Below are positions 4,700 through 62,420 of a stretch of DNA of 64,000 nt, piece by piece (the first letter of the stretch is position 1; each line of letters starts with the position of its first letter). Origin of the DNA: Mytilus edulis (Eukaryota); contig NC_092353.1 in the NCBI RefSeq assembly GCF_963676685.1, positions 20,435,307-20,499,306 of the forward strand, given 5' to 3'. Position numbers and translations under genes: made by a program. Under the pieces are notes generated by a model that worked only from the letters and a program-made list of their open reading frames with translations, was not told where the DNA came from and did no database searches.

Positions 4700-5090
4700 G
4701 ATTTTTATAGTTCGTTCTTATGTTGTACTGTTATACCACTGTCCCAGGTTAGGGGAGGGTTGGGATCCCGCTAACATGTTTAACCCTGCCACATTATTTA
4801 TGTATGTGCCTGTCCCAAGTCAGGAGCCTGTAATTCAGTGGTTGTCGTTTGTTTATGTGTTACTTATTCGTTTTTCGTTCGTTTGTTTTTACATAAATAA
4901 GGCCGTTAGTTTTCTCGTTTGAATTGTTTTACATTGTCTTATCGGGGCCTTTTATAGCTAACTATGCGGTATGGGCTTTGCTCATTGTTGAAGGCCGTAC
5001 GGTGACCTATAGTTGTTAATGTCTGTGTCATTTTGGTCTTTTGTTGATAGTTGTCTCATTGGCAATCATACCACATCTTAGCTCTTAGAC
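4700..5090 (+). repeat. SINE-like interspersed repeat, copy 1 (~350 bp; 3' end ...gttgtctcattggcaatcataccacatct)
   Basis: Homologous copies at 25885-26215, 43690-44050, 54940-55160 (partial) and 62040-62420 (reverse complement); contains an A-box-like gcctgtaattcagtggttg. Confidence 0.7.
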
Positions 5091-6469
5091 CCGAACCAGC
5101 TGAAAAATAATTAAAATTGAAACAAAAGTTATAAGGAAACGACAGTACATTGAAATTAGTATTATTAAAGCTAAAAAGCTAATAAATGCACCTTTATTTC
5201 TATATCATTCATATATTCAATTTGTATATCTTTAATTTCTTAAATCTATTTTTTTTCTTTTATTATTAACATTCTAAATTCTTTTTATATTATTATAGTT
5301 CTTTAATGTATCAATATGGTTACTACTCGCTGTCGTTTTTCTTCAGGTGCAATAATTTAGTAAAAATAAGTACATGATATCAAACATGTTGTTTTAAAAA
5401 TGAGTTATTAAATTTATTATTTTAGATAGCTGACTGGAGACCATTTAATTTAATGTGAGACCTCTAAATCAATGTTGGAGTTTATAACCTAGAATACTAA
5501 AACATTTTTTCATAATTTATTTTTTCATAATTTTCTAAGTTAACACTTGAAGCATTTTTAAAATAGTCATACTTTTGATCTGAGTTAACTATTTGAAACA
5601 TCATTCCAGTCAGCTAAGAGGTATTTTTGAAAAGTTAATTCTGTTTTGTCTTTATGTTTGTGTATGTGTTGCTTTGTTTGAATGTAATATATTGTACCTT
5701 GCTTTGTGGAGAGGGCTTACATAGGCTATGCTTGTTGCCCAATCCAATTCAATTTATTTGAATAAAATATTGTTTAAACTGAAATACCACATCTTCTCTT
5801 TTATATTTACCTGTTTATTGCTTTTGAATAATGAACATTTTTATTTACAAAGTCGTTGTCTTCAAAATCAAACGATAATGACTTTTATTAATAATAGAGG
5901 ACAGAACTTGAGAACAATCTATTAATATGTAACAATGTTTCACATGGACTTTACAGAGGTATCTTGTTTTAGAGATCTTTCCAGCTCTGCTGTCAATGTA
6001 AAGTTAACATTTTTCTTTTGTCATGTAATTTTTCGCATGATAACATAGCCTAAATTATGTAGGACCAGAAGAACAAAATTTCTGATCTTTAATGTTAAAT
6101 TTCTGAAGCAAGTTCTAAAATCATATTGATTTTTCTTTCGAGGATTTTTCTTTTAATAATAAGGGAATATAAAAGGAGAAACATAATATGCATTGAAATC
6201 ATCTTTCCATATTTTGTTTCAAATAAATAACTAATGGGTCGTTTTTAAAATCCATCCATAGTTTAGATAGAAATTGAGGAAATATTTTCATCAGTTAAAC
6301 TAAATTTTTAATATTCTACTGAACTCACAGTAGTTTATATGAACAAAATCTACAAGTAATTAAAAACCAATTGTTCAGAGAACAATTGAAGGTCTTTCCA
6401 CCAGTTAATATCTATTTTGATATTAAAATATTAAAATCAGTCTAAAATGTCAGTTCATATGGCTTTATG

Positions 6470-23829: not shown

Positions 23830-23832
23830 CAT
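23830..23832. repeat. Candidate 3-bp target-site duplication CAT, left side (repeated at 30444-30446)
   Basis: CAT directly abuts both terminal inverted repeats if they are taken as TAAGCCYCAG...; if the inverted repeat is taken to start at GCC instead, the flanks are TAA (left) and TTA (right), which are not identical. Confidence 0.4.
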
Positions 23833-23860
23833 TAAGCCCCAGTCACACTGTCACGTTTCG
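23833..23860 (+). repeat. Harbinger left terminal inverted repeat (28 bp)
   Basis: See element entry. Confidence 0.75.
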
Positions 23861-24300
23861 GCTATCCCGTTTTGCTACGTTTTCAAAACGTAGCGAAACG
23901 GCAAAATCCGTAGTGAATCGTATCGATCCGTAGTTAAAACGGCTATATACGTAGTTATGCGTAGATTGATACGTGATCGGTGCCGTTTGTATTGGTCTGC
24001 ACAATACAAACGTGACTAAAAATGAAAACGTAGTACTAACGTAGAAAAGCGCAGTAAAACGTAGAAGGAACGTAGAAATGCGTATTAGAAACGTACCTGA
24101 TACGTTCTAAAACGTATTTGATTATAATCACTAGGTGTTATTACGTTTAAGTACGTATCTGCCACGTTGCATTAGGTTTTTGTACGGTATATTACGCTTC
24201 ATGGTACGCATTAATAGGTTTCATCACGTTATTCTAGGCATTATTACGTATCGATGCGTATTACTACGCATGATTACCTTCTTCTACGCATAATCAAACC
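23861..24300. promoter_or_regulatory. Left subterminal array of short ACGTA/CGTAG/TACGT motifs (more than 25 CGTA-core copies in ~440 bp); presumed binding sites for the element's Myb/MADF-like protein and 5' region of the transposase gene
   Basis: Direct reading (aaacgtagcgaaacgg..ccgtagtgaatcgtatcgatccgtagttaaaacgg..tacgtagttatgcgtag... etc.); mirrored by an equivalent array at 30050-30415. Confidence 0.6.
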
Positions 24301-24356
24301 ACGTGTATCTATATTTCTCGCCATTTGCTAAAATAGTTTGTCAGTCTTACAGCAAG

Positions 24357-25645
24357 ATGGACAGACAACGGATGGAAATGAAAAATTATGGATTATTGAT
24401 ACACAATCATATTTTGAAATTGAGAATGTTGTTAAACAGACACAGACATAAACGAATAGATCACAGAGTGCGCACGGTATGGGTAAGGGATTGGATAGGT
24501 AGAAGATCTCAGTTTGGTTTTTATGCACAGCTGTTGGATGAATTGAGATGTGAAGACACCGTTTCTTTCAAAAACTTTTTGAGAGTTGATCCAACCATGT
24601 TTCAGGAAATTGTTAATAGATTAACACCAAGGCTACAAAAGAAAGACACGTGGTACCGAAAGGCATTGCCAGTTGGTCTTAAAGTAGCAATAACCCTTCG
24701 ATATCTAGCCACAGGAGACAGTTATCATTCACTTATGTATTTATTTAGAGTGCCGCACAACACGATATCCAATCGTGTAGTACAAGTTTGTGAAGCAATT
24801 ATTTCCGAGTATGCTGAAGATGTTATCAACACACCTACGGAAGAAGCTGGATGGCTAGCCATTTCGCAAGAATTTAGTGATATGTGGCAGTTTCATCATG
24901 TGCTAGGTGCACTAGATGAGAAACACGTTGCTATCAAATGTCCGGCTGGTGGTGGTTCTAAATACTATAATATAAAGGATTCCATTCTATAGTTCTAATG
25001 GGCTTAGTAGACGCTAATTATAAATTTAAATGGGTTAACTTTGGCGCACCAGGTGCTTGCTCTGATGCACAAATTTGGAATCAGTCAGACTTAAAAAATC
25101 ATATAATTGATGAGAATATGCACATACCAAAAGCAGAGCCTCTTCCGAATGATGACAAAGACATTCCGTACTTCATCGTTGGTGACGACGCGTTCGCCCT
25201 CAGAAGTTGGCTAATGAAGCCCTTTTCTAGGAGGAACATGACCCTTGAAGAGAGAGTTTTTAACTACAGGCTATCGCGATCACGAAGAGTTGTTGAAAAC
25301 GCATTTGGGATACTTGCAAATCGATTTCAATGCTTACTTTCAACTTTAAAGCAAGAGCCTAACAATGTCGTATCCATTATTCTGGCCTGTGTTTGTCTGC
25401 ACAATATAATGAGGATAAGATATCCAGGTGATCAGAACATTTTGTTAGACAGAGAAGACGAGAACCACCATCTTTTACCTGGAGCTTGGCGAGACGAAAC
25501 AAACCTGAAGGACATTGATGATGTGAAAGATCGCAACTATCCTAGCAGGCAGCAAAACAACAAAGACTGTATCTTAAACACTATTATTCGTCACCTGCAG
25601 GAAAAGTTCCATGGCAAGAACGAATGGTTCAATAACGTTTTTTAA
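24357..25645 (+). pseudogene. HARBI1/PIF-like DDE transposase (DDE_Tnp_4), ~430 codons, split by a frameshift near 24966-24980 (ORF1 GTG-start 24303-24992, ORF2 24998-25645; the homologous reading actually resumes in the second frame at ~24971 with YKGFHSIVLMGLVDANYKF)
   Basis: LPVGLKVAITLRYLATGDSYHSLMYLFRVPHNTIS (HTH region) and HVLGALDEKHVAIKCP...YYN(R/I)KGFHSIVLMGLVDANYKF..FGAPGACSDAQIWNQS...IVGDDAFALRSWLMKPF (catalytic D...D...GD region) match the Harbinger transposase architecture. The tataatataaagg stretch at 24966-24980 looks like a 1-bp indel. Confidence 0.8.
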
Positions 25646-25884
25646 CTGTCTTATCGTAGTATATTTGAATGATAAGTATATGATTTGTACTTTTGTTTAT
25701 TTAACTTTGAATGTATCAAAAAATATTATCATGATACATGTAATTAAACTTTAAGAAATTCTTCTATTAATACCAGTTTTCTGGTCTTTTAAAAACAATG
25801 GCACGCATGGGTCAGCATACTTAGGATAAATTGAAAATTTCATTATTATAACACTAAAACAACAAGACAAATCAAAATAAAAAA

Positions 25885-26215
25885 AAAACTTTGGGATCCC
25901 GCTAACATATTTAACCCCGCCGCATCATGTATGCATGTGCCTGTCCCAAGTCATAAGCCTGTAACTCAGTGGTTGTCGTTTGTTGCTGTGTTACATATTG
26001 TTTTTCGTTCATTTATTTGTACATTAATAAGGCCGTTAGTTTTTTTTTCGTTCGAATTGTTTTACATTTGTCATTTCGGGTCCTCTTATAGCTGACTATG
26101 CGGTATGGACTTTGCTCAATGTTGAAGGCCATACGATGACCCATAGTTGTTAATTTCTGTGTCATTTGGTCTCTTGTGTAGAGTTGTCTCATTGGCAATT
26201 ACACCACATCTTCTT
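25885..26215 (+). repeat. SINE-like interspersed repeat copy nested inside the Harbinger, between the two genes
   Basis: Aligns over >300 bp with 4735-5085 (gggatcccgctaacat.tttaaccc.gcc...cctgtcccaagtca.aagcctgtaa.tcagtggttgtcgtttgtt...gttgtctcattggcaat.acaccacatct). Confidence 0.7.
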
Positions 26216-26382
26216 TTTTTATATTAACCAACAAAATAATCACTCAAACAAAAAAACTTTTAATTTTACAGACAACTGTCATAATACATGAAATAAACAA
26301 ACTGTCTACATAATAGAGTCGTCTTTTAATGTCATTCATATAAAACTTTAAAACACCTGTACGGTTCCTGGTATGAATAAGT

Positions 26383-26676
26383 TTATAATGAGAAAAGTGA
26401 CGATGAGGGTGAATCAACGTTCATTGAATCCGATTGCATTATTACACTGGCAATACTTGATGTTGTAATATCTTGTGCGCATGTAACAGGTGGAGCAGAA
26501 TGTGCTCTTATAGGTTCAATGTCTGCTTGAGTTTTAGACCGGTTTTGCAGAAAGGCGACGTCCTGTCCAGGTAGCTGATATTGCTGCTGCCATGCAGGTA
26601 GGTACCCAACATTACTTGATTGATTACAGAAGCTGCCCATGGGAACATCCAATGCAGATTGTTGACCAGTGAATCC
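26383..26676 (-). CDS. Probable terminal exon of the Harbinger Myb/MADF-like gene (…GFTGQQSALDVPMGSFCNQSSNVGYLPAWQQQYQLPGQDVAFLQNRSKTQADIEPIRAHSAPPV…SL*), followed by an ATTAAA signal ~50 nt downstream
   Basis: Strong acceptor tttttgttgttgcag|GGATTCACTGG near 26677; open to the stop at 26383; attaaaag on the - strand near 26330. Confidence 0.4.
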   Translation of the reverse strand, partial: GFTGQQSALDVPMGSFCNQSSNVGYLPAWQQQYQLPGQDVAFLQNRSKTQADIEPIRAHSAPPVTCAQDITTSSIASVIMQSDSMNVDSPSSSLFSL

Positions 26677-26879
26677 CTGCAACAACAAAAAACATGACCA
26701 TATAAACAAGTTTGATCAACTGTGTATCATCGGCGTTGGAATTAGGTACTAGAACTGGGGTTATGCGGGGTTTCAAGGAAGGATAATTAACATAACTGTA
26801 CGGGGTACTGTTGCCTTGTTCGGTAATGCCGATTTCTTAAAGATAAATAAATCCCAGTTCCTAAGTCAAGGATACACAG

Positions 26880-27060
26880 CAGTGGCGGATTCAGAGGGGG
26901 GGGGGTCATAGAGGGCGTACGCCCCCTTTATTTGTACTTTTTCTCCCCTTTTTACGTGATTTTAGCCAAAAAAAAAACAATTTCGCCTCGCTCCGCTCGC
27001 CAAGAAAATATGGTATACGCCCCTTTCTAAATTCCTGGATCCAATTCTGTAACCATATCG
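26880..27060. repeat. G-run MITE-like fragment (cagtggcggattcagaggggggggg...) related to 7546-7693, sitting in an intron of the MADF-like gene
   Basis: The terminus cagtggcggat(t/c)cagaggggg is shared with the rc of 7675-7693. Confidence 0.45.
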
Positions 27061-27282
27061 TTTTAATATACGTAGTATATATAAATATATATATATATAT
27101 GACCGGACGCATGACAATTTCAAAATGCAGCAATTACCTGAGAGTAATTACAACACGAGGCATCCAAAATATGCAGGTGAACTAAAGAAATGTGTATTTC
27201 GAAACATGTTCTGACCTTTCAGTCTTAACACAATACTAGTACTAGTAAATAATATGTGAATAATATACCTGCAGTTGCTGAA

Positions 27283-27362
27283 GACGTTGTTTATCACGGC
27301 TGCGTAGCTCCTTACTTTCATTTTGAAATCTATCCAATAGATCCATACTCTCTCTTTTAAAC
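27283..27362 (-). CDS. Candidate internal exon (…FKRESMDLLDRFQNESKELRSRDKQRLQQLQ) between acceptor tttttgctttcag| and donor CAG|gtatat
   Basis: Splice-signal reading on the - strand; frame assignment uncertain. Confidence 0.3.
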
Positions 27363-28154
27363 CTGAAAGCAAAAATTTGATATGAATTCATTTAAAAAGT
27401 GAGAATCAATATCATATTAATGTAAACTATAGCTATAATGGATTATTTTTGATACATCTCATTCTTTTGAGAAAGTGTGAGGAAAATAATTGAAAACGAA
27501 TCATACTGAAGTTTGATAAACACCAATCTTTACATATAATACTTTTGCAAAGTTTCATGAAAATCTCTCAATAACTTCAAAGTTTCATTTCAAAACGGCT
27601 TAACTTAAAAACGAAGTTTTCGATATATCTTAACATTAAACTTGTAAAAGCTCTCTGTTTAGTACTCAACAATTGAGCAAAGTGTCAATAAAAATTATGG
27701 ATTCGTTCTTAAATGACTACTTGGTAACAGTCGATGACGGACGGACAGATGGACAAGCGGACGAAAGAGCAGACAGACAGGCAATACGCAGACGAACGGA
27801 CACGCAACCAAACGTTTTTTACGAAAGGTATTACACAATGCCTTGCGACTTCGTGTGGCGGGGTATAAAAACTAATGTCATTACCATAGCGTATCATCGG
27901 ACACAGGATGTTGGTACCAGGCTTAAACGATTTGTATGGTGTTCAATTTTAAAACTGCTACAGTACATCAAAAAGTTGTTGCACTGCACCGTGGAGTTAT
28001 GTTTTTCCTCCTAAAAAATCAGAATAGACCCTCTGCTCGATGATACACGATTTTTATATAGCGTATTCGGCCGTGTATAGTACACATTCATCAAGTAACA
28101 AAACATTAACATACAAAAGCATAGCATACCTCCCCCACAATCTGTCGTCAATAC

Positions 28155-28390
28155 CTGGAAGAATGCTGACCATCCAATGTCCCCAGTTCTGCCTTTCGGG
28201 TGTCATGTCCGCGTGACTAGCCAGCTTAGCCTGCACTTGTTTCTGTAATTCAGAAGACTGTTTTATTGCTTCCTGGATGTCTTTTTCAACTGGAGATTGC
28301 ATCTTCTGGTATTTCTTTTTTGTTTTTGTTGTAACTATAGGAGAGGGAATATCTATTGTGCTGGACGTCTCCTCAAGATTACATTGCGAT
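28155..28390 (-). CDS. Candidate exon 4 of the MADF-like gene (SQCNLEETSSTIDIPSPIVTTKTKKKYQKMQSPVEKDIQEAIKQSSELQKQVQAKLASHADMTPERQNWGHWMVSILP), acceptor ttttttttctttag|, donor CCAG|gtattg
   Basis: Open frame between canonical splice signals; joins in frame with the acidic frame of the 100-nt exon 3 (..GAAAGAAG|A TCG CAA..). Confidence 0.45.
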
Positions 28391-28691
28391 CTAAAGAAAA
28401 AAAAACCGATGAAAGTTGTATTTTTTGTTCTAAACAATACAAGAAGACACCCTATCTCTACTACTACGGTGGGTTTTGAACGACCTTGACTGGCTTGACA
28501 CCCTATCTCATAACAAGAAAACAAGAAATGCCGGAAGCACAATCAATCCGATACAATTACTTTTAACTGAAAAGTATTTACAAATGTAAGTGTGATGGAC
28601 GGACGGACGGACCAAAACATTATAATAAGTCCTGATGTGAAGATATAGGTTCAATTTAACTAATTATACAAAGAAGTAAATGGTTACTGAC

Positions 28692-28791
28692 CTTCTTTCA
28701 TCGTCTTCTTTACTTTCCCCTTCGTCCTCATGTTCACTGGGAGAATCGACGCAAGCATCTGTTCCGTATTTGCCTTGAGTTTCCCTTTCAG
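28692..28791 (-). CDS. Candidate 100-nt exon 3 (acidic frame ERETQGKYGTDACVDSPSEHEDEGESKEDDER), acceptor atatttcag|CTGAAAGG, donor GAAAGAAG|gtcagt
   Basis: Consensus splice signals at both ends; acidic linkers of this kind are typical downstream of MADF domains. Confidence 0.45.
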
Positions 28792-29020
28792 CTGAAATAT
28801 TCAGACATAATCGGAACATTATTTATGTATTCGTACAAGATATATCGAGATAAAGTCAAACATTTGAAATGAAACAGCTGTAAAATGAATTTCGTAGAAT
28901 CAGAACATTAAGTATCATTTAGAAAAAGAAAAAAGGTACGGGAATTCAACAAAGGAAATAACAATAAAAGGTAAAAAAAGTGAACTGAAATATTAAGTAA
29001 TAGAAAACTGTATTGCACAC

Positions 29021-29277
29021 GTTTATTCCTCCTCTGGTTTCTATTCTGGCAATATGTGGACCCAAGAAGCCAAATTTTTCTTTGATCCATTTGTCTCTTT
29101 GAGTATCATCTTTTCTGCCTGAACCAGATTTATTGCCTTCTCGTGTCAGTCTTCCGAGCTGAGATCTCATTGACTCAACCCATGTCCTGAGAGTCTTCCA
29201 ATCCTCTACCCCTAGCTCATTAGCTTTTGCTTGCCATCGTGTATTTTTGAGAGCAGTATCTTTGTACTGATAATGAG
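29021..29277 (-). CDS. Exon 2 of the MADF-like gene, encoding the body of the MADF domain (AHYQYKDTALKNTRWQAKANELGVEDWKTLRTWVESMRSQLGRLTREGNKSGSGRKDDTQRDKWIKEKFGFLGPHI...)
   Basis: Acceptor ttttttttcttctctttcag|CTCATTATCAG at ~29278; W...W...LR..W......G......K...W..F.FL is the MADF signature; the 3' donor is uncertain (AAC|gtgtgc near 29020, or earlier). Confidence 0.65.
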
Positions 29278-29425
29278 CTGAAAGAGAAGAAAAAAATCGG
29301 TCACATTGATTTTTAAATATAAAGACCATGCTGTAAGTTTATCTATGTCTACTGGTGGGGTTAACATCTTTTGACATTTCTTCTCCGTATTAATATTTTA
29401 AATTATAGCAAATAAATACATGTAC

Positions 29426-29651
29426 CTTTGTTGTATAGAGGTTCGTTTTCTCTATACCAATCTGCCAACTCATCCTGCTTTTCTTGTGGTATTTCTAATG
29501 GCTTGCTTCTTTTGCGCTTCTCTTTATTGGTATTAGCTGGCTGTTCAGTATCACTATTTTGTGTTTGCTCATTTGTTTCTTGTGTATTAGTTGTTTCAGT
29601 CTCAGGCGCCACACTAACTATGCGGCCCCTTCCTCTGCCTCTGGTCCTCAT
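29426..29651 (-). CDS. Exon 1 of the MADF-like gene (MRTRGRGRGR...KEKRKRSKPLEIPQEKQDELADWYRENEPLYNK), donor AAAG|gtacat; the basic and RG-rich N-terminus looks like a nuclear localisation signal
   Basis: ATG at 29651; DELADWYRENEPLYNK is the start of the MADF domain, which continues in frame into exon 2 (phase 1, G|CT = Ala). Confidence 0.65.
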
Positions 29652-30049
29652 CAGAACGGTCTGGTTTGAAACACACTAAAAGATAAAATCAAATACCGGT
29701 AAGAGGAAAATTGGATTTAAAACGGACAATGTGCAACGTAGAATATTTCAAAAGAGCAATTATTATAAAAGGGAAAGCATTGACAATGTTCTAACCAAAG
29801 CTTTAAATGTTTTTTCATGTTTCATGTATCCACTCAACAAAAATCTTATCTGAAAGAAAAAAACAATAAAATCTTTCTTTTGAGTACTAAATTTTTAGAC
29901 CATAAAATGGGAACAAAATAATTTAATTACAATGACAGATGTATTAGTAATTATAAAGTGTACCTCTATTAATGTCTCCAGATTTGTTTTAGTTACTCTG
30001 CTCCCTCTTTACATCTCTGTCCTTTCTAAATTTTATTGAATAATGATGC

Positions 30050-30415
30050 CGTTTCACGATAAGTGATCACAGCGTAGTGACACGTGATACTGCGCGCAAT
30101 AAACTTGCTAAATCGTAGGAAATCGTGCAAAAGCGTACTTGAACCGATTTAGAAACGTACTAAACCCTAGTAATACGTAGTGAAACGTAGTAAACCGTAG
30201 TAAAACGTAGTTTATACGTACTGAAGCGTATTAAAACCTAGTAGAACGTACCCCTTGTAGTTATAAAAAAACCTAGCAAATCGTAACAAAACGAAACAAT
30301 ACGTAGAAGAACGTATCAAAACGTGGCGTAAACCTAGTTAAACGTACGGACCGTTAAAAATGACAAAAAAATGCCATGAAACGTAGCATTTCTACACGTA
30401 CTAAAACCTAGCTGT
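30050..30415. promoter_or_regulatory. Right subterminal ACGTA/CGTAG motif array of the Harbinger, upstream of the MADF-like gene
   Basis: aatcgtaggaaatcgtg..agcgtacttg..aaacgtactaaaccctagtaatacgtagtgaaacgtagtaaaccgtagtaaaacgtagtttatacgtactgaagcgtatt... etc. Confidence 0.6.
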
Positions 30416-30443
30416 CGAAACGTGACAGTGTGACTGAGGCTTA
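30416..30443 (-). repeat. Harbinger right terminal inverted repeat
   Basis: Reverse complement = TAAGCCTCAGTCACACTGTCACGTTTCG. Confidence 0.75.
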
Positions 30444-30454
30444 CATAAAAGTAT

Positions 30455-31730
30455 CGTATATATGTAACCCCCCAAACGTGTCTGATTCCCCCAAACGTGT
30501 CCACATCGACGTCACTGAACTGCAAAGACATGTCTAGTTGTCAAAGGGCGCTAAAGCGTGTCATTTGTATAAACGCTCAAACGTGTCCATTTTTTAATTA
30601 ACCCCCAGTCGTGTCCAATCCCCCAAACGTGTCCATACCAAGCTTTTTTTTTATTTTACTGGAACTATCATTCGTGTTCATATTATAAAAACGTAGGTTA
30701 TTTGTGTGTGGTTTTTTTTATTTTTGTCATTGTATACTCATTTTACGATCTTTTACTATTTCATTAAAAGATCAAAATAAATTACTTAAATTCTTTTTCT
30801 ATGCCCATTAAAATGTTTGTAGCATTTAACTCGTTATAATGTGCCATACTTTGTATTTTGGAAGGCAAATTTTTTTTTAATTTCTGCAACTTTTATTTGA
30901 AACAGCCTCTATATTACATAACAGACATTGAAGTAGTTTCTTACTGAAATCATAAACAAATCGGTCTTTACTCGCATTTATTTTTCTTTAGATTAAAATC
31001 CAAACTAGTGGTCATCCCAAATAACCGTAAAAGTTAATGCCCAATTTTAAATTCCCGGTTTGATAATATAACCTATTTACAGTATATATCGTTAATATGA
31101 TATCGTTCAAAAAATGAATGAAATATTTGGCACTGGACGTTATGTCTCTTGTTCGTGTGTCTTTAGTGACGCTCGTTACCTATTTATTAAAATTAGAACT
31201 GTTAAAAAAAGATGGGAGGTCAATTCGACTGAAAGCCCACCGTGCAATATTCTGATTAATATAAAAGGCATCATCGGAGTTTATTAGTATAAAAGAATTT
31301 ACATAGTAAACGATTAATTCAACTATACTAGAATTATTTGCATGTTCGCTTTAAATTAGTATGAAATAATGAAGCAAATTAGGTCAAAAGTTAATGCATA
31401 TGTTACATATTAAATTTTCAGTAATGATAATCATTACAAACCGGCATTGAACAAGTTAATGTTAATAAATTACCACTTCATCACCTGTGTCCCCATCATA
31501 GAACTGCCGTGAACGTTATTGATGTCGCATTTAGGACATGTATTTGCGCAAAAGACACGAGACGTTCTGGCGTTTAAAAGTGGACACGTTTGGGCGAATT
31601 ACAATAGTATCGGGCATGTTTGGGGGCCCGGGTTCTGAAATCGGACACGTTTGGGGAATATTGAATATTATGGACACGTTTGGGGGGAAGGACACGTATG
31701 GGAGTGTTACATATATATATATATATATAT
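30455..31730. mobile_element. MITE-like element with inverted subterminal arrays (CCCAAACGTGTCC)n at 30470-30640 and (GGACACGTTTGGG)n at 31545-31700, and TA-rich termini (gttacatatata); it directly abuts the Harbinger right end
   Basis: At least five copies of the 13-mer on each side, in opposite orientation; no coding capacity between them. Confidence 0.5.
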
Positions 31731-31899
31731 GGAATAAACACATTAAAAATTTAAATTGTTTGATCGATATTTAAATACCAAACCAGTTAGACATTTTTTA
31801 AACAGAATAGCTTGAATGCCTTATATGTTTCACAATTATACTCTCCGCTTTGAGTCAGAATAAGGCATACAATTAAATTTACAAGTCGATCATACGGTC

Positions 31900-32130
31900 A
31901 TTGCTATATTAATAGTATCAAATTTACAACACAGAAAGCCCTCCTAGTCAGACTAATATGTATTATGCTTGATGGTCATTGCTATATGAAATAGTATCAA
32001 AATTACAACACAGAAAGCCCTTCTAGTTAGACTAATATGTACTATGCTTGATGGTTAATGCTTTATGAAACAGTTTCAAAATTACAACACAGGGAGCCCT
32101 CCGAGTCAGACTAATATGTAGTATGTTCGT
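31900..32130. repeat. ~73-bp tandem repeat x3 (..tcattgctatatgaaatagtatcaaaattacaacacagaaagccct.ctagtcagactaatatgta.tatgct)
   Basis: Direct reading. Confidence 0.8.
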
Positions 32131-52745: not shown

Positions 52746-54939
52746 AATTTGCATCCACCTGTCTATGAACAGTTTATTGAATTGATTTTCATATTTTATT
52801 TCATTGTCATCATATTGCATAGAAAACAAAGATCAACCATCAACCGAACAATCTTTCAGAATTCGAAAAGTGGCCGAACTTAGGCTTATAAATATTCTTT
52901 CATGACAAGGAAACGAGAGTAGTGTTCTTGATAATCTCGATATATTTGAAAGAAACGCTGAACAAAATATAAATAATCATTCAGATCACCTCTTTGCATT
53001 ATAGCTGCCATTGAGCCTCTCGATTTATTGATGCACCGAAAATTGATATTCTACAGAGTAGGAGGGTTGAGATTTAAGATATCTGCTTCCCTAAATGACA
53101 TGCCATAATGATCGTTTATTTTGAGTCATATCAAAATTTACTATCAATTTTCTTTGAAAAGTAAATGCTGCAACACTGCGAATTCACTTAACCTCCGTTA
53201 TCAATCTCCTTCTATCCCGTCTCATTTAAAGAAACATCGCAGTATAATGCCTTTGTAAATATAAGTACTCTTTAACTTGGCTCTTTTGAGCTATTGTTTG
53301 AACTTAAAACAATAAAGCCAAACTCTCACCAAGTATCAAAAACATGGTAAATATATAAACTTGCTATTGAAATGACAGCCAAATTTAATTGATGATATGA
53401 CAATACTCTTAGTTAGGACATGTATATTCCATAATAAAACTTATCCTTTTAAGTTTGAAAATATCGAACTATACCGGTAAAATCATTGATTATCTCTCAA
53501 TTCCTTTTTATAATCGTAGGTACTGTCTACTAGTATTCGATCAATTGCTGACAATTATTATAATTTAATATCGCACCGTACAACTGCAGTAAGCTCAATA
53601 AGAACATCATGCCCGATATACCTTTGAGAAGGAGACACTAGTCTTAACTTTTCTGCATGCCACGTCGTAGGAGTAGACTGAAAAGTGAGAGGGGACAAAA
53701 GTATTATATAATTAACTCGGCGCTCTGTTTCATTTTAATTTATTATTTTGAATAGATGTTACTGTATAAAATGGTTGACAGAAGCATAGTTTTCCCTAAA
53801 ATCCCCTTTGTTTTTCTGTGATGTATTGTGTTGGTTAATTCCTCCACAGGGCTATACCTCTTCTGCTTGAAATCTAAGGTGGACAGTATGACATTTCTAT
53901 GACAATTCTGTGTACAAAGTTTATAACGTCAACTGTCTTTATACTTTGTAATTATATGAAAATAATTATATAGAGTATTTTACTGACTTTACTTGACATT
54001 TGTGGCCAGACACTACTCAGTTTTGACGAACAGATAAACAGGTCAGTCAAAGGTTTGGATTGTTTTGGTTGTGTATAATGTAGAGGCGTAAGATCTCGAG
54101 TTCTAAGCTATAAAACAGATTCTCATAAGTAGATTTCTACTTTGATAAACATTGTTATTATTCGTATTGATTATTTTTTCATTAAGAAATCGGTAGCCAT
54201 AGTAGACAAGACGCTTTGACATGATATCAGTCGGTATTCAAATTGCATCATTACTACACTCCATGATAAAACTAAAATTACAAAAAACTCAAAGGATAAT
54301 TAAAAGATATATTTGTAAAGGTAAATGTTTCATCAGGTTATGAGTACCATATGTTTTTGCTTTAACACCACTCACATAAATGTTTGATTGATTTTCAGAG
54401 ATAAGTTTGGAAGGTTCTGTAGAACGCTTAATCAATTCTGTAAAATATTTTGCGTAACAGAACTAGAAGACTGACTTCTATTAGTACACTTAATTTATAA
54501 AGACGATTTGTATATGGAAAAAAAAGTTGAAGAGAAAAAAATAACGTGTCCTCTATTATAGATACACAAGGTAATATTCTTATATAAAAACGCCTATTCT
54601 GTTATGATTACTCAAAAGGTACTTTATAAAGGTATAAAGTTGATGAGCTATGAGGACCAACTATATATCATTTGATTTTGTTTTATACATTTAAGCTTTG
54701 TTATACTTTCATAACCATAGAAATAACGAAACAATTCCAAAATGTCAACGTAGTCATAGTTTACCTTCTTTAATTAAGAGGTTAATTTTCATCATTTAAT
54801 TTGAAGTGCTCATTTGACTGCTTTATCTATCTGTATTTCAATGTCGTTTGAAGCTATGTATATGAACTTCTTGATAAAAACTATATTTGGGATTAAACCA
54901 TTGACAATAGGAAATGCATTGTAAGTAAGCATGTAATGT

Positions 54940-55160
54940 GTTACATATTCGTTTTTCGTTCATTTTTTAAATAAATAAGGCCGTTAGTTTTCTCGTTTGA
55001 ATTGTTATACATTATCATTTCGGAGCCATTTATAGCTGACTAGACGGTAAGGGCTTTGCTCATTGTTGAAGGCGGTACGGTCACCTATTGTTGTTAATTT
55101 CTGTGTCATTTTGGTCTCTTGTGGAGAATTGTCTAATTGGCAATCATATTACATCTTCTT
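54940..55160 (+). repeat. SINE-like copy, 5'-truncated (3' two-thirds only)
   Basis: aataaggccgttagttttctcgtttgaattgtt.tacatt.tcatttcgg...ttgctcattgttgaaggc.gtacggt.acct...gttgtctaattggcaatcatattacatctt. Confidence 0.65.
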
Positions 55161-57499
55161 TTTTATATGTATATTTTAAATTGATAATGCATTGATATTG
55201 TTTGATCAGGGTCATACCATACAAACTTCTTGTTCCTGTTCTCCACTGTGTAAAGTCATTAAGATATCTGTTCTGTGATATATCTCTTTTAATGTAGGGA
55301 ATTCATACCAGGAATGTAAACAAAAGCATTCTCATACACTTCAGTATGATCGTTAAATTACACCAAGATGTAGGTTTCATATAGATAATTACTAATTAAT
55401 TGTTACAACTATTTAGTATAGATGAATATACAAATGTAACCTTTCAGATAACAAATGAATCCATAGACCTGTTGTAAAAAACGTATTCGTAAAAGCAGGA
55501 CATTTATCGAATAAAGGATTGGTAAATTATCTTCGACTAAACATTTCCACAATTTACTTATTTTCTTGTAAAACAATTCAGTTCAAATAATTATCCGGCC
55601 ATCTAATGTTTTGGTTCTATATATCATTGGTGTTTGATTCTGTTGTTTCGTTGTTTTCCTCATATAGTTGATGTCTTTCCCTCAGTTTTAGTTTGTAACC
55701 CGGATTTGTTTTCTCTCAATCGATTCTTGACTTTTGAACAGCGGTATAATGCTGTTGTCTTTATATACCATGTAGTATTTGACAGTAAATCGACTAAACA
55801 TCAGAACAGTTCTTGAATCCCTTCAACACCTTGGTTGAATGTCCTATTACATAAGCTTATTATGATATTATCCTCTTTAAAATCTGTAAGTCTTCGTTAG
55901 TCTTAAATTGTTCGGCTTCACTTATTCCTATCGCGCAACGTTACGTAAAATATCATGTATTTGATGTTGGCAACTGTTCATACACCACACAAAGCGATAA
56001 ATACTCGATTAAAATGTAGTTACATAAAATCGTACTTGAAATAAAATTTCCTCATTTATGGAATTGATCGTGTTTTGGTATAAAATAAATAAACAAGAAT
56101 AATAAAAAAAAAGGCATAAAATTATTACTGTGAATGTTACAGTTTACCTTTTGAAAGACCTTGATCTGCTATGACTTATAACCGAATACTTGCTTATACT
56201 ATTCAATCATAGAGTGAAAAAACAAAGGACAATACTAACTAGAGCATGATAGCATGGATATGCTGGCATCTAGAAAGATGCTTCCCAAGACTTGTTAATG
56301 TTAACATGTCATGTTATAACCATTTGATAAATGTTCACATATCATTTCTTGTATCAGGATAAAAACATAATTCCGCATGTGACAGGTTCTCGTCAATCAA
56401 ATCAGGCTAACCTTCAAAGTAAAATTTAAACTTTTCCATTAGTTCTAATAGTGTTTGTCTTGATTGATTATGATAAGGTCTCTATCTTCAAATGAATGCT
56501 ATGATTAATCAAGTAAATGAGTTCATTAAGAAATTTTAATAGTATCTTTCTTTCGTGAATATATCTTAAGAAATACACCGACCGTTAAGGTATCAAGATT
56601 GAGAATTTATTAATAATTATGAAGACGATTGTAAAGTAAAGTAAAATTTCAATCCTGGTATCTATGATGAGTTTTTTTTATTATTCAATACATTCGTATT
56701 TTCACGCAATTTTAAGCATTTTTGTAAAGATTGAAATACTTCTGAAAATGTAATAAAATAAATTCAGAACGGATTTGCCATACGTTTTTATTGTTGGAAC
56801 TTTCCTTGTCAAGATGTTATTTTTTTTTAATAAAGTTGCGTCATCAAAGACAATGTAAAACATGGTAAAATTTAATACTTATTTTCTTAGTAAGCATTAA
56901 ATAAAAAATTTCAAAAGAGTTAATGTGTTGTTAAAGTTGTCTGATGCATTTAACTATGTTTGATTAAAAATCGGCAGATGACGTCAATCCATTCATTTAA
57001 AATAAATAGCGGTAGTATAATGGACATTCATGAAGAAGTAGTTATCAGAATTGTTTCCTTATTTTTTTTAAAACAGAAAACAATGTAAAAATACAATGGT
57101 TTGATTATTGACAGACTTATGACGCAATTGTTACATGATGTTAATCTTTAGTGTGGTAGTGTTACAGTCCTTTAACAGCATGTCGATATTGTGACTGAAA
57201 TGTTTTAAAATTGGTTACGAATATATTGTAGCAAATCACAACTTTTCTTTATATGATAATATAAATTGAAAAAAGGCGAGGAGTCAAAATATGATGGAAT
57301 TAGAAGAATTAGAATTAAGATTAAAACTAATAGATAGATCTAATATATATTATACCTTTCACAGATTTGAGAAAATCTAAGTAACAATTAATAATTGTGT
57401 GCGTCCAAATAGATTGACATTTATGAAGAACACGCTAATTAAACTATTTTAACCCAAAGAACCGTCAGCTGACAATAAAACCATTTTTTGTCTATCAGT

Positions 57500-58917: not shown

Positions 58918-60890
58918 TTATACAGATGTTCTTAATAAAAGACAATCATTAATATACTTTATGGTGATTTTTATAATGACTGGTAGACTGCTATTTAAAA
59001 GTACAGTCAAATGATTTAGTGTTATAGTGGACTGCAATTTAATAAAATTGAAATTAAGATTTTTATTAATATTTTGTATATAGGTATACCTTAATGATTT
59101 ATAGCATGGACAGATTGAGAAGAAATGGTATTCATCCTCAATTTCTTGTCTGTTACAGGATAAGCAAATGCGTTTACTTCTTTCAATGTTGGTATAACGC
59201 CCTCTTTCAATTGCTAGGGAATGCGTACTTAGTTTAAATTTACTGAAAACTGATCGGTCGGTTTTTAATTTACATATATCAATATATGGGGGCCTTTTTC
59301 TAATTCTTTTAGTATGACAAAAGAAATTAAATTTTTCACATTTATTGATAGAACAATTCATAATTTGATAAGCCTGGTCATAGATTCTTTGTTGGATACT
59401 ATTTATGTGATATTTTAAATTAAAAGTATTAAAAGTGAGATGACCAAAACCTAATTTATTTAACCAGTCTTTTACAATGTTAACCCATTTACTTGTTTTC
59501 TCTACATTATTATATATTTTATGGACTAAAGTGTTAGGCGAGTTTACAATGTGGTTTAGAAATTTTAAAGCTGAAAGGTGAATTTTAAAGTACAAAGGGA
59601 TTCTGTTTGTCTCAGTTAAACAGGCTACATTTGTTGTTTTGCACTGTACTCCTAAAATTTCTTTAATAAATTTAATATGTAAATGTTCAAATGGATCTGA
59701 ATCTTTGAACACTTGGCTTACACCCCAAACTTCACATCCATAAAGAGTTATTGGAACAACTAAAGTATCAAATAATTTTTCAAGCATACTGCAGGAATTA
59801 TCTAAAGAGACTGTTTTTTTAATTTTAAACCAAGCTTTTCTTCCTTTTTCCATAAGATTTTTTGTTGAATGACTTAAACTTCCTGAACAATTTATAGTTA
59901 TTCCAACGTAACAAATAGATTTAACAGTCTCAATATGTTCTTTTTCTACTTTAAAATAATTACAATGAGATTTTCCATTAGAATTGAATATTATAATTTT
60001 TGATTTTTGTTTGTTAACATCAAGTTTCCATAGGGAACAAAATTTAGTTAACTCATTTAGTGCATTTTGTAGCCCTTCTTGGGTTTCAGACAATAAAATA
60101 ATGTCATCTGCATATAATAATGATGTTAGTTTAACATCTCCTATAATCATTGGTTCAGTGTTTGCATGATCAAGGTCATTTACAAGGCCATTTATATAAA
60201 TATTAAACAAAGTGGGGCTAAGTACATCCCCTTGTTTTACTCCGCAATTTGATATAAATTCATGGCTAATACCATTTTGAAATTTAATTCTGCATTTGTT
60301 GTCATTGTACATTGATTGGATGACGTTAAAAAGTTTGCCTGGAAGTCTGTTTTGGAGTAGAATGTAGAATAAACCCTCCCTCCAAACAGTATCAAAGGCT
60401 TTTTGCAGATCTATAACTGCAGCAAAATTTTTCTTTTTTTTAGTTTTATATTTGTCTACAATAGACTTTAATGAGAAGATATGATCTGCTGTTCTAGCTT
60501 TTTCTTTGAAGCCGATCTGATTTTCACTTATCAAATTATTGGTGTTAATAAACTTCATAAGTCTAGTGTGTATAATTTTATTGAATAATTTTCCCAAATT
60601 AGAAGTCAATGAGATACCTCTATAATTAGAGGGGTCAGATTTGTTCCCCTTTTTATGAATTAAAGTAATCAGACTTTTGTTCCATAATTTTGGGAAGCTG
60701 CCTTTCATAAATACTAGGTTGAAAAGTTTTAATAGGGGTTCTAATAATACTGGCATACCGCATTTAATCATTTCGTTAGAAATTAAGTCTTCAGCTGATG
60801 ATTTACCATTTTTAAGTGTTTTAACTGCATTTAAAATTTCAGCTGGCTGAATTTGTTTATTAAATTCGTTGTCAGAGTTGCATGTATTTA
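58918..60890 (-). mobile_element. 5'-truncated non-LTR (LINE) retrotransposon with an intact reverse-transcriptase ORF (CDS 58918-60771, 617 aa; the frame stays open to ~60890 but there is no endonuclease domain)
   Basis: RT motifs PSNYRGISLTSNLGKLFNKIIHTRL, AAVIDLQKAFDTV, QGDVLSPTLFNIYIN, LLYADDIILLS (YADD box); the C-terminal domain is LYGCEVWG followed by C-x2-C...DEYHF..C.C. Confidence 0.9.
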
Positions 60891-62039: not shown

Positions 62040-62420
62040 CCTACTTATAAAAAAGAAGATGTGGTATGATTTCCAATGAGACAACTATCCACAAAAGACC
62101 AAAATGACACAGACACGAACAACTATAGGTCACCGTACGGTCTTCAACAATGAGCAAAGCCCATACCGCTTAGTCAGTTATAAAAGTCCCCGATAAGACA
62201 ATGTAAAACAATTCAAACGAGAAAACTAACGGCCTTATTTATGTAAAAAAAAAAATGAACGAAAAACGAATATGTAACACATAAACAAACGACAACCACT
62301 GAATTACAGGCTCCTGAATTTGGACACGCACATACATAAATAATGTGGCGGGGTTAAACATGTTAGCGGGATCCCAACCCTCCCCTAACCTGGGACAGTG
62401 GTATAACAGTACAATTATTG
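62040..62420 (-). repeat. SINE-like interspersed repeat, full-length copy in reverse orientation
   Basis: The rc of 62040-62420 aligns end to end with 4735-5085. Confidence 0.7.

Follow-up and report, generated by a model that had tools for sequence, protein, structure and literature searches.

A gene-less element with mirrored subterminal arrays beside a Harbinger copy in Mytilus edulis: a probable non-autonomous DNA transposon of tentative Ginger2/TDD type

A 1,249-bp element occupies positions 30463–31711 of a 64,000-nucleotide stretch of Mytilus edulis DNA, referred to here as the window. It has the termini TGTAAC...GTTACA, carries five copies of a 13-nt unit (CCCAAACGTGTCC) in each arm, mirrored between the arms, and is probably a non-autonomous cut-and-paste DNA transposon of Mytilus without a gene of its own. 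First-pass annotation of the window had noticed a second, separate, non-coding inverted-repeat DNA element adjoining a Harbinger transposon, and this observation stands: the element has its own termini, and a further copy, on a marine-metagenome contig of 1,069 bp (L048), ends at the same base. The extent given at that stage, 30455–31730, was right as to place, but the element proper runs from 30463 to 31711. The features to which the text refers are the following.

23833–30443, + strand: neighbouring Harbinger, 6.6 kb (context), delimited by homology to seven copies; last conserved base at about 30441–30443
30459–30462, no strand: putative left target-site duplication TATA, read from the sequence; preceded by A at 30458
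30463–31711, no strand: the element, a probable non-autonomous terminal-inverted-repeat DNA transposon; alignment of its arms to one another and to L048 extends exactly to TGTAAC
30463–30507, + strand: left terminal inverted repeat proper (~45 nt, containing units 1 and 2), from alignment and the inverted pairs of a repeat finder
30471–30634, + strand: left subterminal array, units at 30471–83, 30490–502, 30576–88, 30604–16 and 30622–34
30635–31581, no strand: AT-rich non-coding interior, with ORFs of at most 57 aa
31070–31142, no strand: fragment of another Mytilus repeat (~265 bp), 77% identical to L119 15386–15665
31582–31702, - strand: right subterminal array, units at 31582–94, 31612–24, 31643–55, 31672–84 and 31690–702
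31667–31711, - strand: right terminal inverted repeat proper (~45 nt, containing units 1 and 2), from alignment
31712–31715, no strand: putative right target-site duplication TATA, with which a (TA)9 run (31712–31729) begins; the next base is T

The arms of the element are ~80% similar to each other, and their outermost ~45 nt align as a true terminal inverted repeat with the end consensus TGTAACACTCNNAAACGTGTCCTTCCCCCCAAACGTGTCCA. The left junction reads cgtatata/TGTAAC (here and below, a slash marks a boundary) and the right junction GTTACA/tatata; as first described, the mirror array on the right runs to GTGTTACA, after which (TA)9 begins at 31712. The mirrored arrays of at least five units each were likewise found at the place first reported, with five units located per strand. 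Six of the ten units are exact copies of CCCAAACGTGTCC and the remaining four differ from it by one or two bases; in addition, a degenerate unit (GCTAAAGCGTGTCA) at 30550–30563 of the left array is kept in L048. Allowing up to two mismatches, the 13-mer has 10 matches in the 64 kb, all 10 of them inside the element. For the 11-mer CAAACGTGTCC, one mismatch allowed, nine matches were counted in the window against 0.64 expected (a count matched by none of 100 shuffles), and eight of these nine matches fall within the two arrays. The inverted arrays and the termini are real, far beyond what chance would give.

Spacing of the units differs between the arms. Measured from its own end, the right arm has units at offsets of 9, 27, 56, 87, and 117 nt, that is, a first step of 18 nt followed by steps of ~29–31 nt inward; the left arm, with offsets of 8, 27, 113, 141, and 159 nt, is less regular and includes one gap of 86 nt. 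Overall, spacing is irregular, at roughly 18–30 nt. Tandem Repeats Finder reported no tandem repeat in the array region, and the units are not arranged head-to-tail. In Ac/Ds, P, En/Spm, and Harbinger elements, the subterminal repeats are established as sites that transposase binds. By analogy, we infer that the 13-mers are candidate sites for binding by a trans-acting transposase; their ~29–30-nt spacing may place the 13-nt sites on one face of the helix, and candidate sites so well phased would suit DNA-binding experiments.

The general organization has familiar counterparts. Ds of the Ac/Ds system, defective En/Spm elements, and the MITE-like elements of bivalves are, from general knowledge, gene-less with inverted ends, have short repeated motifs within ~200 bp of those ends that are presumed to be bound by transposase, and vary in their interiors between copies, all as in the element; in contrast to them, its copy number seems low. 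Two of the superfamilies concerned, hAT (8-bp duplication) and CACTA (3 bp), differ from the element in both duplication and termini. MITEs have a usual size limit of ~800 bp and high copy numbers. In its lack of coding capacity, its inverted ends, and its plausible duplication the element resembles a generic MITE; its length (1,249 bp) and the mere two copies seen in the DNA sampled do not fit.

The first-pass statement that no protein-coding capacity lies between the arrays was borne out: the longest ORF inside the element encodes 57 aa, and none of the ORFs tested has a credible Pfam match. Specifically, the two internal ORFs (57 and 45 aa) gave no Pfam match at E ≤ 1, and for two ORFs overlapping the right end the best match was at noise level (E = 0.25), well short of the family cutoff. 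Six-frame translations of both ends and of L048 returned nothing at E ≤ 1 from a set of 5.8 billion proteins, exact look-up of 18 window ORFs in or near the element found no record for those of the element and of its right flank, and no Rfam family reached threshold anywhere in the window. The interior fragment at 31070–31142 belongs to a repeat that occurs at least nine times in 285 kb of Mytilus DNA. This ~265-bp repeat ends in ...GCATGAAATATTTGCCACTGGACGTTAAGCAACC; further stretches of it lie at L120 2868–3125, L120 5609–5873, and L116 948–1153, and one copy has inserted into a Harbinger in L119.

The second copy came from a metagenome scan in which the query was two units within 34 nt; 97 stretches were returned, one of which (L048) proved by BLAST to be related to the element. 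Positions 162–368 of this contig are 83% identical to window positions 30458–30655, and its left end also matches the right end of the element in the window (93% over 46 nt). Its flank (...tttttttaaacATATA/TGTAACACTC) is unlike that in the window, yet homology begins at the identical TGTAAC. The interior of L048 is mostly unrelated to that of the window copy, with only 31114–31252 aligning, at 70% identity; part of this common stretch belongs to the abundant ~265-bp Mytilus repeat. Stretches of the ...ATGCATGA... type recur in the L048 interior, which also contains a 69-nt direct repeat (570–638 and 692–760).

Because the left end in L048 breaks off at the identical TGTAAC, next to a flank of its own, the element is a dispersed mobile element and not a local duplication, as judged from two loci, one with a full copy and one with a left end. 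Conserved ends around a variable filler interior are what dispersed non-autonomous DNA transposons typically show. A non-mobile origin, either by local inverted duplication or through protein-binding sites gathering in situ into a satellite-like cluster, would agree with the single complete copy seen, but it is barely credible given that L048 repeats this 200-nt end, boundary included, in an unrelated flank and that the window copy terminates in one and the same hexamer on either side, with matching flanks. With arms ~80% alike and 83% identity to L048, the window copy is probably old and inactive.

The mobile element is probably present in modest copy number. No further copies were found in ~285 kb of Mytilus DNA fetched by way of Harbinger proteins (fetching ~220 kb more added none). 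Pattern scans gave no match and then one chance match in bacterial and archaeal genomes, and no match in either scan of viral contigs; a literature search on the motif strings and on Mytilus MITEs found nothing relevant. In another metagenome contig (L007, GC 0.56), CAAACGTGTCC-like units are found within the 200 nt at 325–522, three of them on one strand and four on the opposite one; this contig is GC-rich and unrelated, and it looks like a bacterial regulatory or repeat region.

All three ends at hand, two in the window and one in L048, have A-TATA directly outside TGTAAC, and the next base outward differs among them. With the boundary at TGT, flanks of 2, 4, and 6 nt match perfectly and flanks of 8 nt do not; odd lengths never match, symmetric boundaries giving ATA vs. 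TAT or TAT vs. ATA. With the boundary at G, ATAT matches in both flanks, and the L048 flank is ATAT as well. The site lies in a (TA)n tract, so that both the length of the duplication (2, 4, or 6 bp) and the exact boundary (TGT or G) are ambiguous. The reconstructed pre-insertion site is ...AAAAGTATCGTATAT(AT)nGGAATAAAC (an empty allele would be expected to read ...GGCTTACATAAAAGTATCGTATATAT(AT)nGGAATAAAC). A 79-bp tandem repeat of 2.9 copies with 88% matching follows at 31896–32125, ~185 bp beyond the right end of the element.

The neighbouring Harbinger was identified by a transposase with the Pfam domains DDE_Tnp_4 and Plant_tran that is 91% identical to a Mytilus galloprovincialis protein. 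In the window the transposase gene (24303–25645) is split into two frames at ~24992/24998, and RefSeq annotates only its first 211 aa (XP_071136885.1 of M. edulis, identical); this copy is therefore probably defective. An intact transposase of 426 aa is encoded in other copies (P0001, P0127). A second gene (28946–29651, - strand, with two exons joined by eye) includes an exon ORF of 127 aa that is unchanged on 33 Logan/ENA contigs; its product had been labelled MADF-like, but Pfam recognizes no family in it at E ≤ 1. If the Harbinger ends are read as TAAGCC...GGCTTA, CAT stands on both sides (23830–23832 and 30444–30446) and not a TWA duplication.

An interspersed family of ~330 bp, with 70–88% identity between copies, is found in the window at 4760–5079, 25901–26215, 54937–55168, 62049–62377, and elsewhere; the member nested within the Harbinger recurs in every copy of that transposon. 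At 58918–60771 (- strand) an ORF of 617 aa has a reverse-transcriptase domain (RVT_1, E = 3e-43) and thus represents a retroelement copy. In L099, a second, degenerate Harbinger end (TAAAGCCCAAGTTAAACTGTCACGAT...) at 5961–6010 lies directly outside the right end of the full copy, which indicates that Harbinger ends can sit in tandem.

The element and the Harbinger are close neighbours: 21 nt (30442–30462) separate the last Harbinger base (30441) from TGTAAC, where a gap of ~10 bp had been estimated at first. Homology to seven Harbinger copies (L099, L100, L107, L112, L116, L117, and L118; ~98% identity) stops at ~30442–30454, the few bases of homology past 30443 being chance matches, and the flanks then differ in every copy. 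Since homology stops near 30441–30443 and the flanks differ, the element is not part of the Harbinger. Right flanks of at least 300 bp could be read in six of the other Harbinger copies, and all six consist of unrelated DNA with neither the element nor its motif. L116 and L117 were considered as orthologous empty sites and rejected; the 10–11 nt that they match past the Harbinger end are due to chance and their flanks are unrelated.

The first-pass annotation had gone further and proposed that the element is a passenger of the Harbinger, with one MADF-like protein recognizing the arrays of both. In its full form this reading has the Harbinger transposase and a Myb/MADF-like protein, acting on ACGT-core units, mobilize the element. 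Both elements do have ACGT-containing subterminal repeats that include AAACGT, and they are 21 bp apart. AAACGT is, however, all that the Harbinger unit AAACGTAGTA and the element unit CCCAAACGTGTCC have in common, and this is not above background; the Harbinger subterminal unit, AAACGTAG(T/A)A, and the element unit do not have the CCC or GTCC parts in common. Up to two mismatches, CAAACGTGTCC has three matches in the Harbinger (0.45/kb) against ~1.2 expected from the rest of the window (0.18/kb), which is not significant. The comparison of motifs that had been suggested as a check thus speaks against one protein recognizing both arrays.

The ends of the two elements point the same way. Their termini are unrelated (TGTAACMC... 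in the element vs. (TA)AGCCYCAGTCACAC and (TA)AGCCYCAGTCACACTGTCACG in the Harbinger). Harbingers make 3-bp TWA duplications, and a 3-bp TWA duplication cannot be fitted to flanks in which odd lengths never match. The AAACGTAG units of the Harbinger (23835–24300 and 30040–30441) are on the same (+) strand at both ends, that is, direct, although its terminal repeats are mirrored, whereas the units of the element are mirrored. Nor do the two occur together elsewhere, as the passenger proposal would have them do: none of the six other Harbinger copies with a readable right flank carries the element there, and no Harbinger sequence lies beside the L048 copy. Tourist-like passengers of PIF/Harbinger elements are similarly non-coding, AT-rich in target, and Harbinger-adjacent, but the element is without Harbinger termini, cannot have a TWA duplication, and does not co-occur with the Harbinger elsewhere. 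There is no evidence that the Harbinger moves the adjacent element, and we regard the passenger reading as highly improbable. The most plausible account of the adjacency is that each element inserted independently into the same AT-rich stretch. An earlier suggestion that the clustering reflects a preferred target or nested insertion is thus weakly supported in its first part, in that both elements choose AT-rich sites, and fails in its second, the insertions being adjacent and not nested.

The superfamily of the element was judged from its end features. Ginger2/TDD is the best fit, an assignment that may be correct but is tentative because no autonomous partner was found. Ginger2 elements have TGTNR...YNACA termini, duplications of 4 bp (rarely 5 bp), and the preferred target RTATAY (PMC2836005); their terminal repeats are ~45–300 bp long (45–297 bp in Table 2 of PMC2836005). 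Short non-autonomous derivatives of them are on record, Ginger2-1N1_NV among others, and the snail Littorina has a member of the group (PMC2836005; Bao, Kapitonov and Jurka 2010). The element reads TGTAA...TTACA at its two ends in the window and TGTAA in L048; the target is A-TATA-T in the window and A-TATA in the L048 flank (two insertions); and the ~45-nt terminal repeat is at the bottom of the Ginger2 range, with mirrored units extending out to ~160 nt. A 4-bp TATA/TATA duplication fits the one two-ended copy, and 2 and 6 bp fit equally well in the (TA)n tract. The arrangement A/TATA/TGTAA...TTACA/TATA/T fits Ginger2 exactly, which would explain where conservation stops. Occurrence of the group in a mollusc and its non-coding derivatives are further points in common; arrays of 13-nt subterminal motifs such as those of the element, in contrast, are absent from the description of the group (PMC2836005).

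The Ginger2/TDD transposase resembles retroviral integrase (H2C2 plus DDE). The core of the Littorina Ginger2 (Ginger2-1_LS), taken from the supplement to PMC2836005, was used as a query; among the best 120 matches there was no named protein from Mytilus, most matches being without a name, and the Ginger2 transposase clusters examined were from sponges or unnamed. Two Ginger2-like loci from other organisms (L110 and L111) had no clear terminal repeats for comparison. No integrase-like transposase with the ends or motif of the element was present in the ~222 kb of Mytilus DNA searched; the sole integrase-like stretch in the sampled Mytilus DNA is part of an LTR retrotransposon that does not have the motif.

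A close second to Ginger2/TDD on end features is Sola2, which would make the element GTAAC...GTTAC with a 4-bp ATAT duplication, mobilized by a Sola2 DDD transposase. Sola2 elements have AT-rich 4-bp duplications of the form AWWT (ATAT, AAAT, and ATTT) and G...C ends (PMC3627910, supplement 11), and they are reported in bivalves, with 14 curated families (PMC10294476). Moving the boundary one base inward gives ATAT, which fits AWWT, in both flanks of the window copy and in L048 as well. Such a boundary does not account for two more conserved flank bases (T and A), except if ATAT targets are simply common in (TA)n tracts; the described terminal repeats of Sola2 are short (12–21 bp) against ~45 nt in the element; and slime moulds are the only source of Sola2 ends with which the element could be compared. 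A Sola2 origin is the less likely of the two, and on the whole rather doubtful.

That the element belongs to some superfamily other than Ginger2 or Sola2 is unlikely. Candidates would be others with even-length duplications, namely Tc1/mariner-like elements (TA) and IS3EU/GingerRoot-like elements (6-bp TATATA with TG..CA ends), which we consider a slim prospect. Flanks of 2 and 6 bp match as well as those of 4 bp, GingerRoot elements have 6-bp duplications and occasionally TG..CA ends (PMC6839031, PMC10045372), and with these rarer TG..CA boundaries the flanks agree at six of six positions (TATATA vs. TATATA). A TA-only target, however, leaves five conserved flank bases at three ends unexplained for a Tc1/mariner-like element; IS3EU ends are normally TA..TA, a boundary at which the flanks agree at only four of six positions (CGTATA vs. 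TATATA); and the targets of GingerRoot are GC-rich. On end features, hAT and P (8-bp duplication, YARNG/CATG ends), piggyBac and Kolobok (TTAA), and Mutator (9–10 bp) were rejected, as were Helitron/Helentron, which are without inverted arrays, and Foldback elements, in which tandem sub-repeats are expected.

Movement of the element can be pictured as follows. A transposase encoded elsewhere in the genome would bind the CCCAAACGTGTCC sites, five or six per arm in mirror orientation, with the first two of each arm within the ~45-nt terminal inverted repeat. It would then pair both ends, cut at the TGT...ACA termini, and reinsert the element through a short staggered cut into an AT-alternating target, here ATATAT, giving the TATA duplication; the insertion would have been independent of the Harbinger 21 bp to its left. 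It is also conceivable, if somewhat speculative, that the element represents an undescribed mussel family of Ginger2/TDD in which the phased (~29–30 nt) arms of five to six sites serve in recognition of the ends and whose intact autonomous partner persists in Mytilus; in a more remote variant of this reading, the Harbinger accessory protein would bind the element through the AAACGT core that the two share.

The importance of the element beyond annotation is small. Its neighbourhood illustrates that DNA transposons can be immediate neighbours with no functional link between them, and the analysis gives a Mytilus repeat that has probably not been classified so far clean boundaries, a consensus for its repeat unit, and a tentative superfamily; if the Ginger2 assignment is true, the element would be a rare non-autonomous example from a bivalve of a small superfamily.
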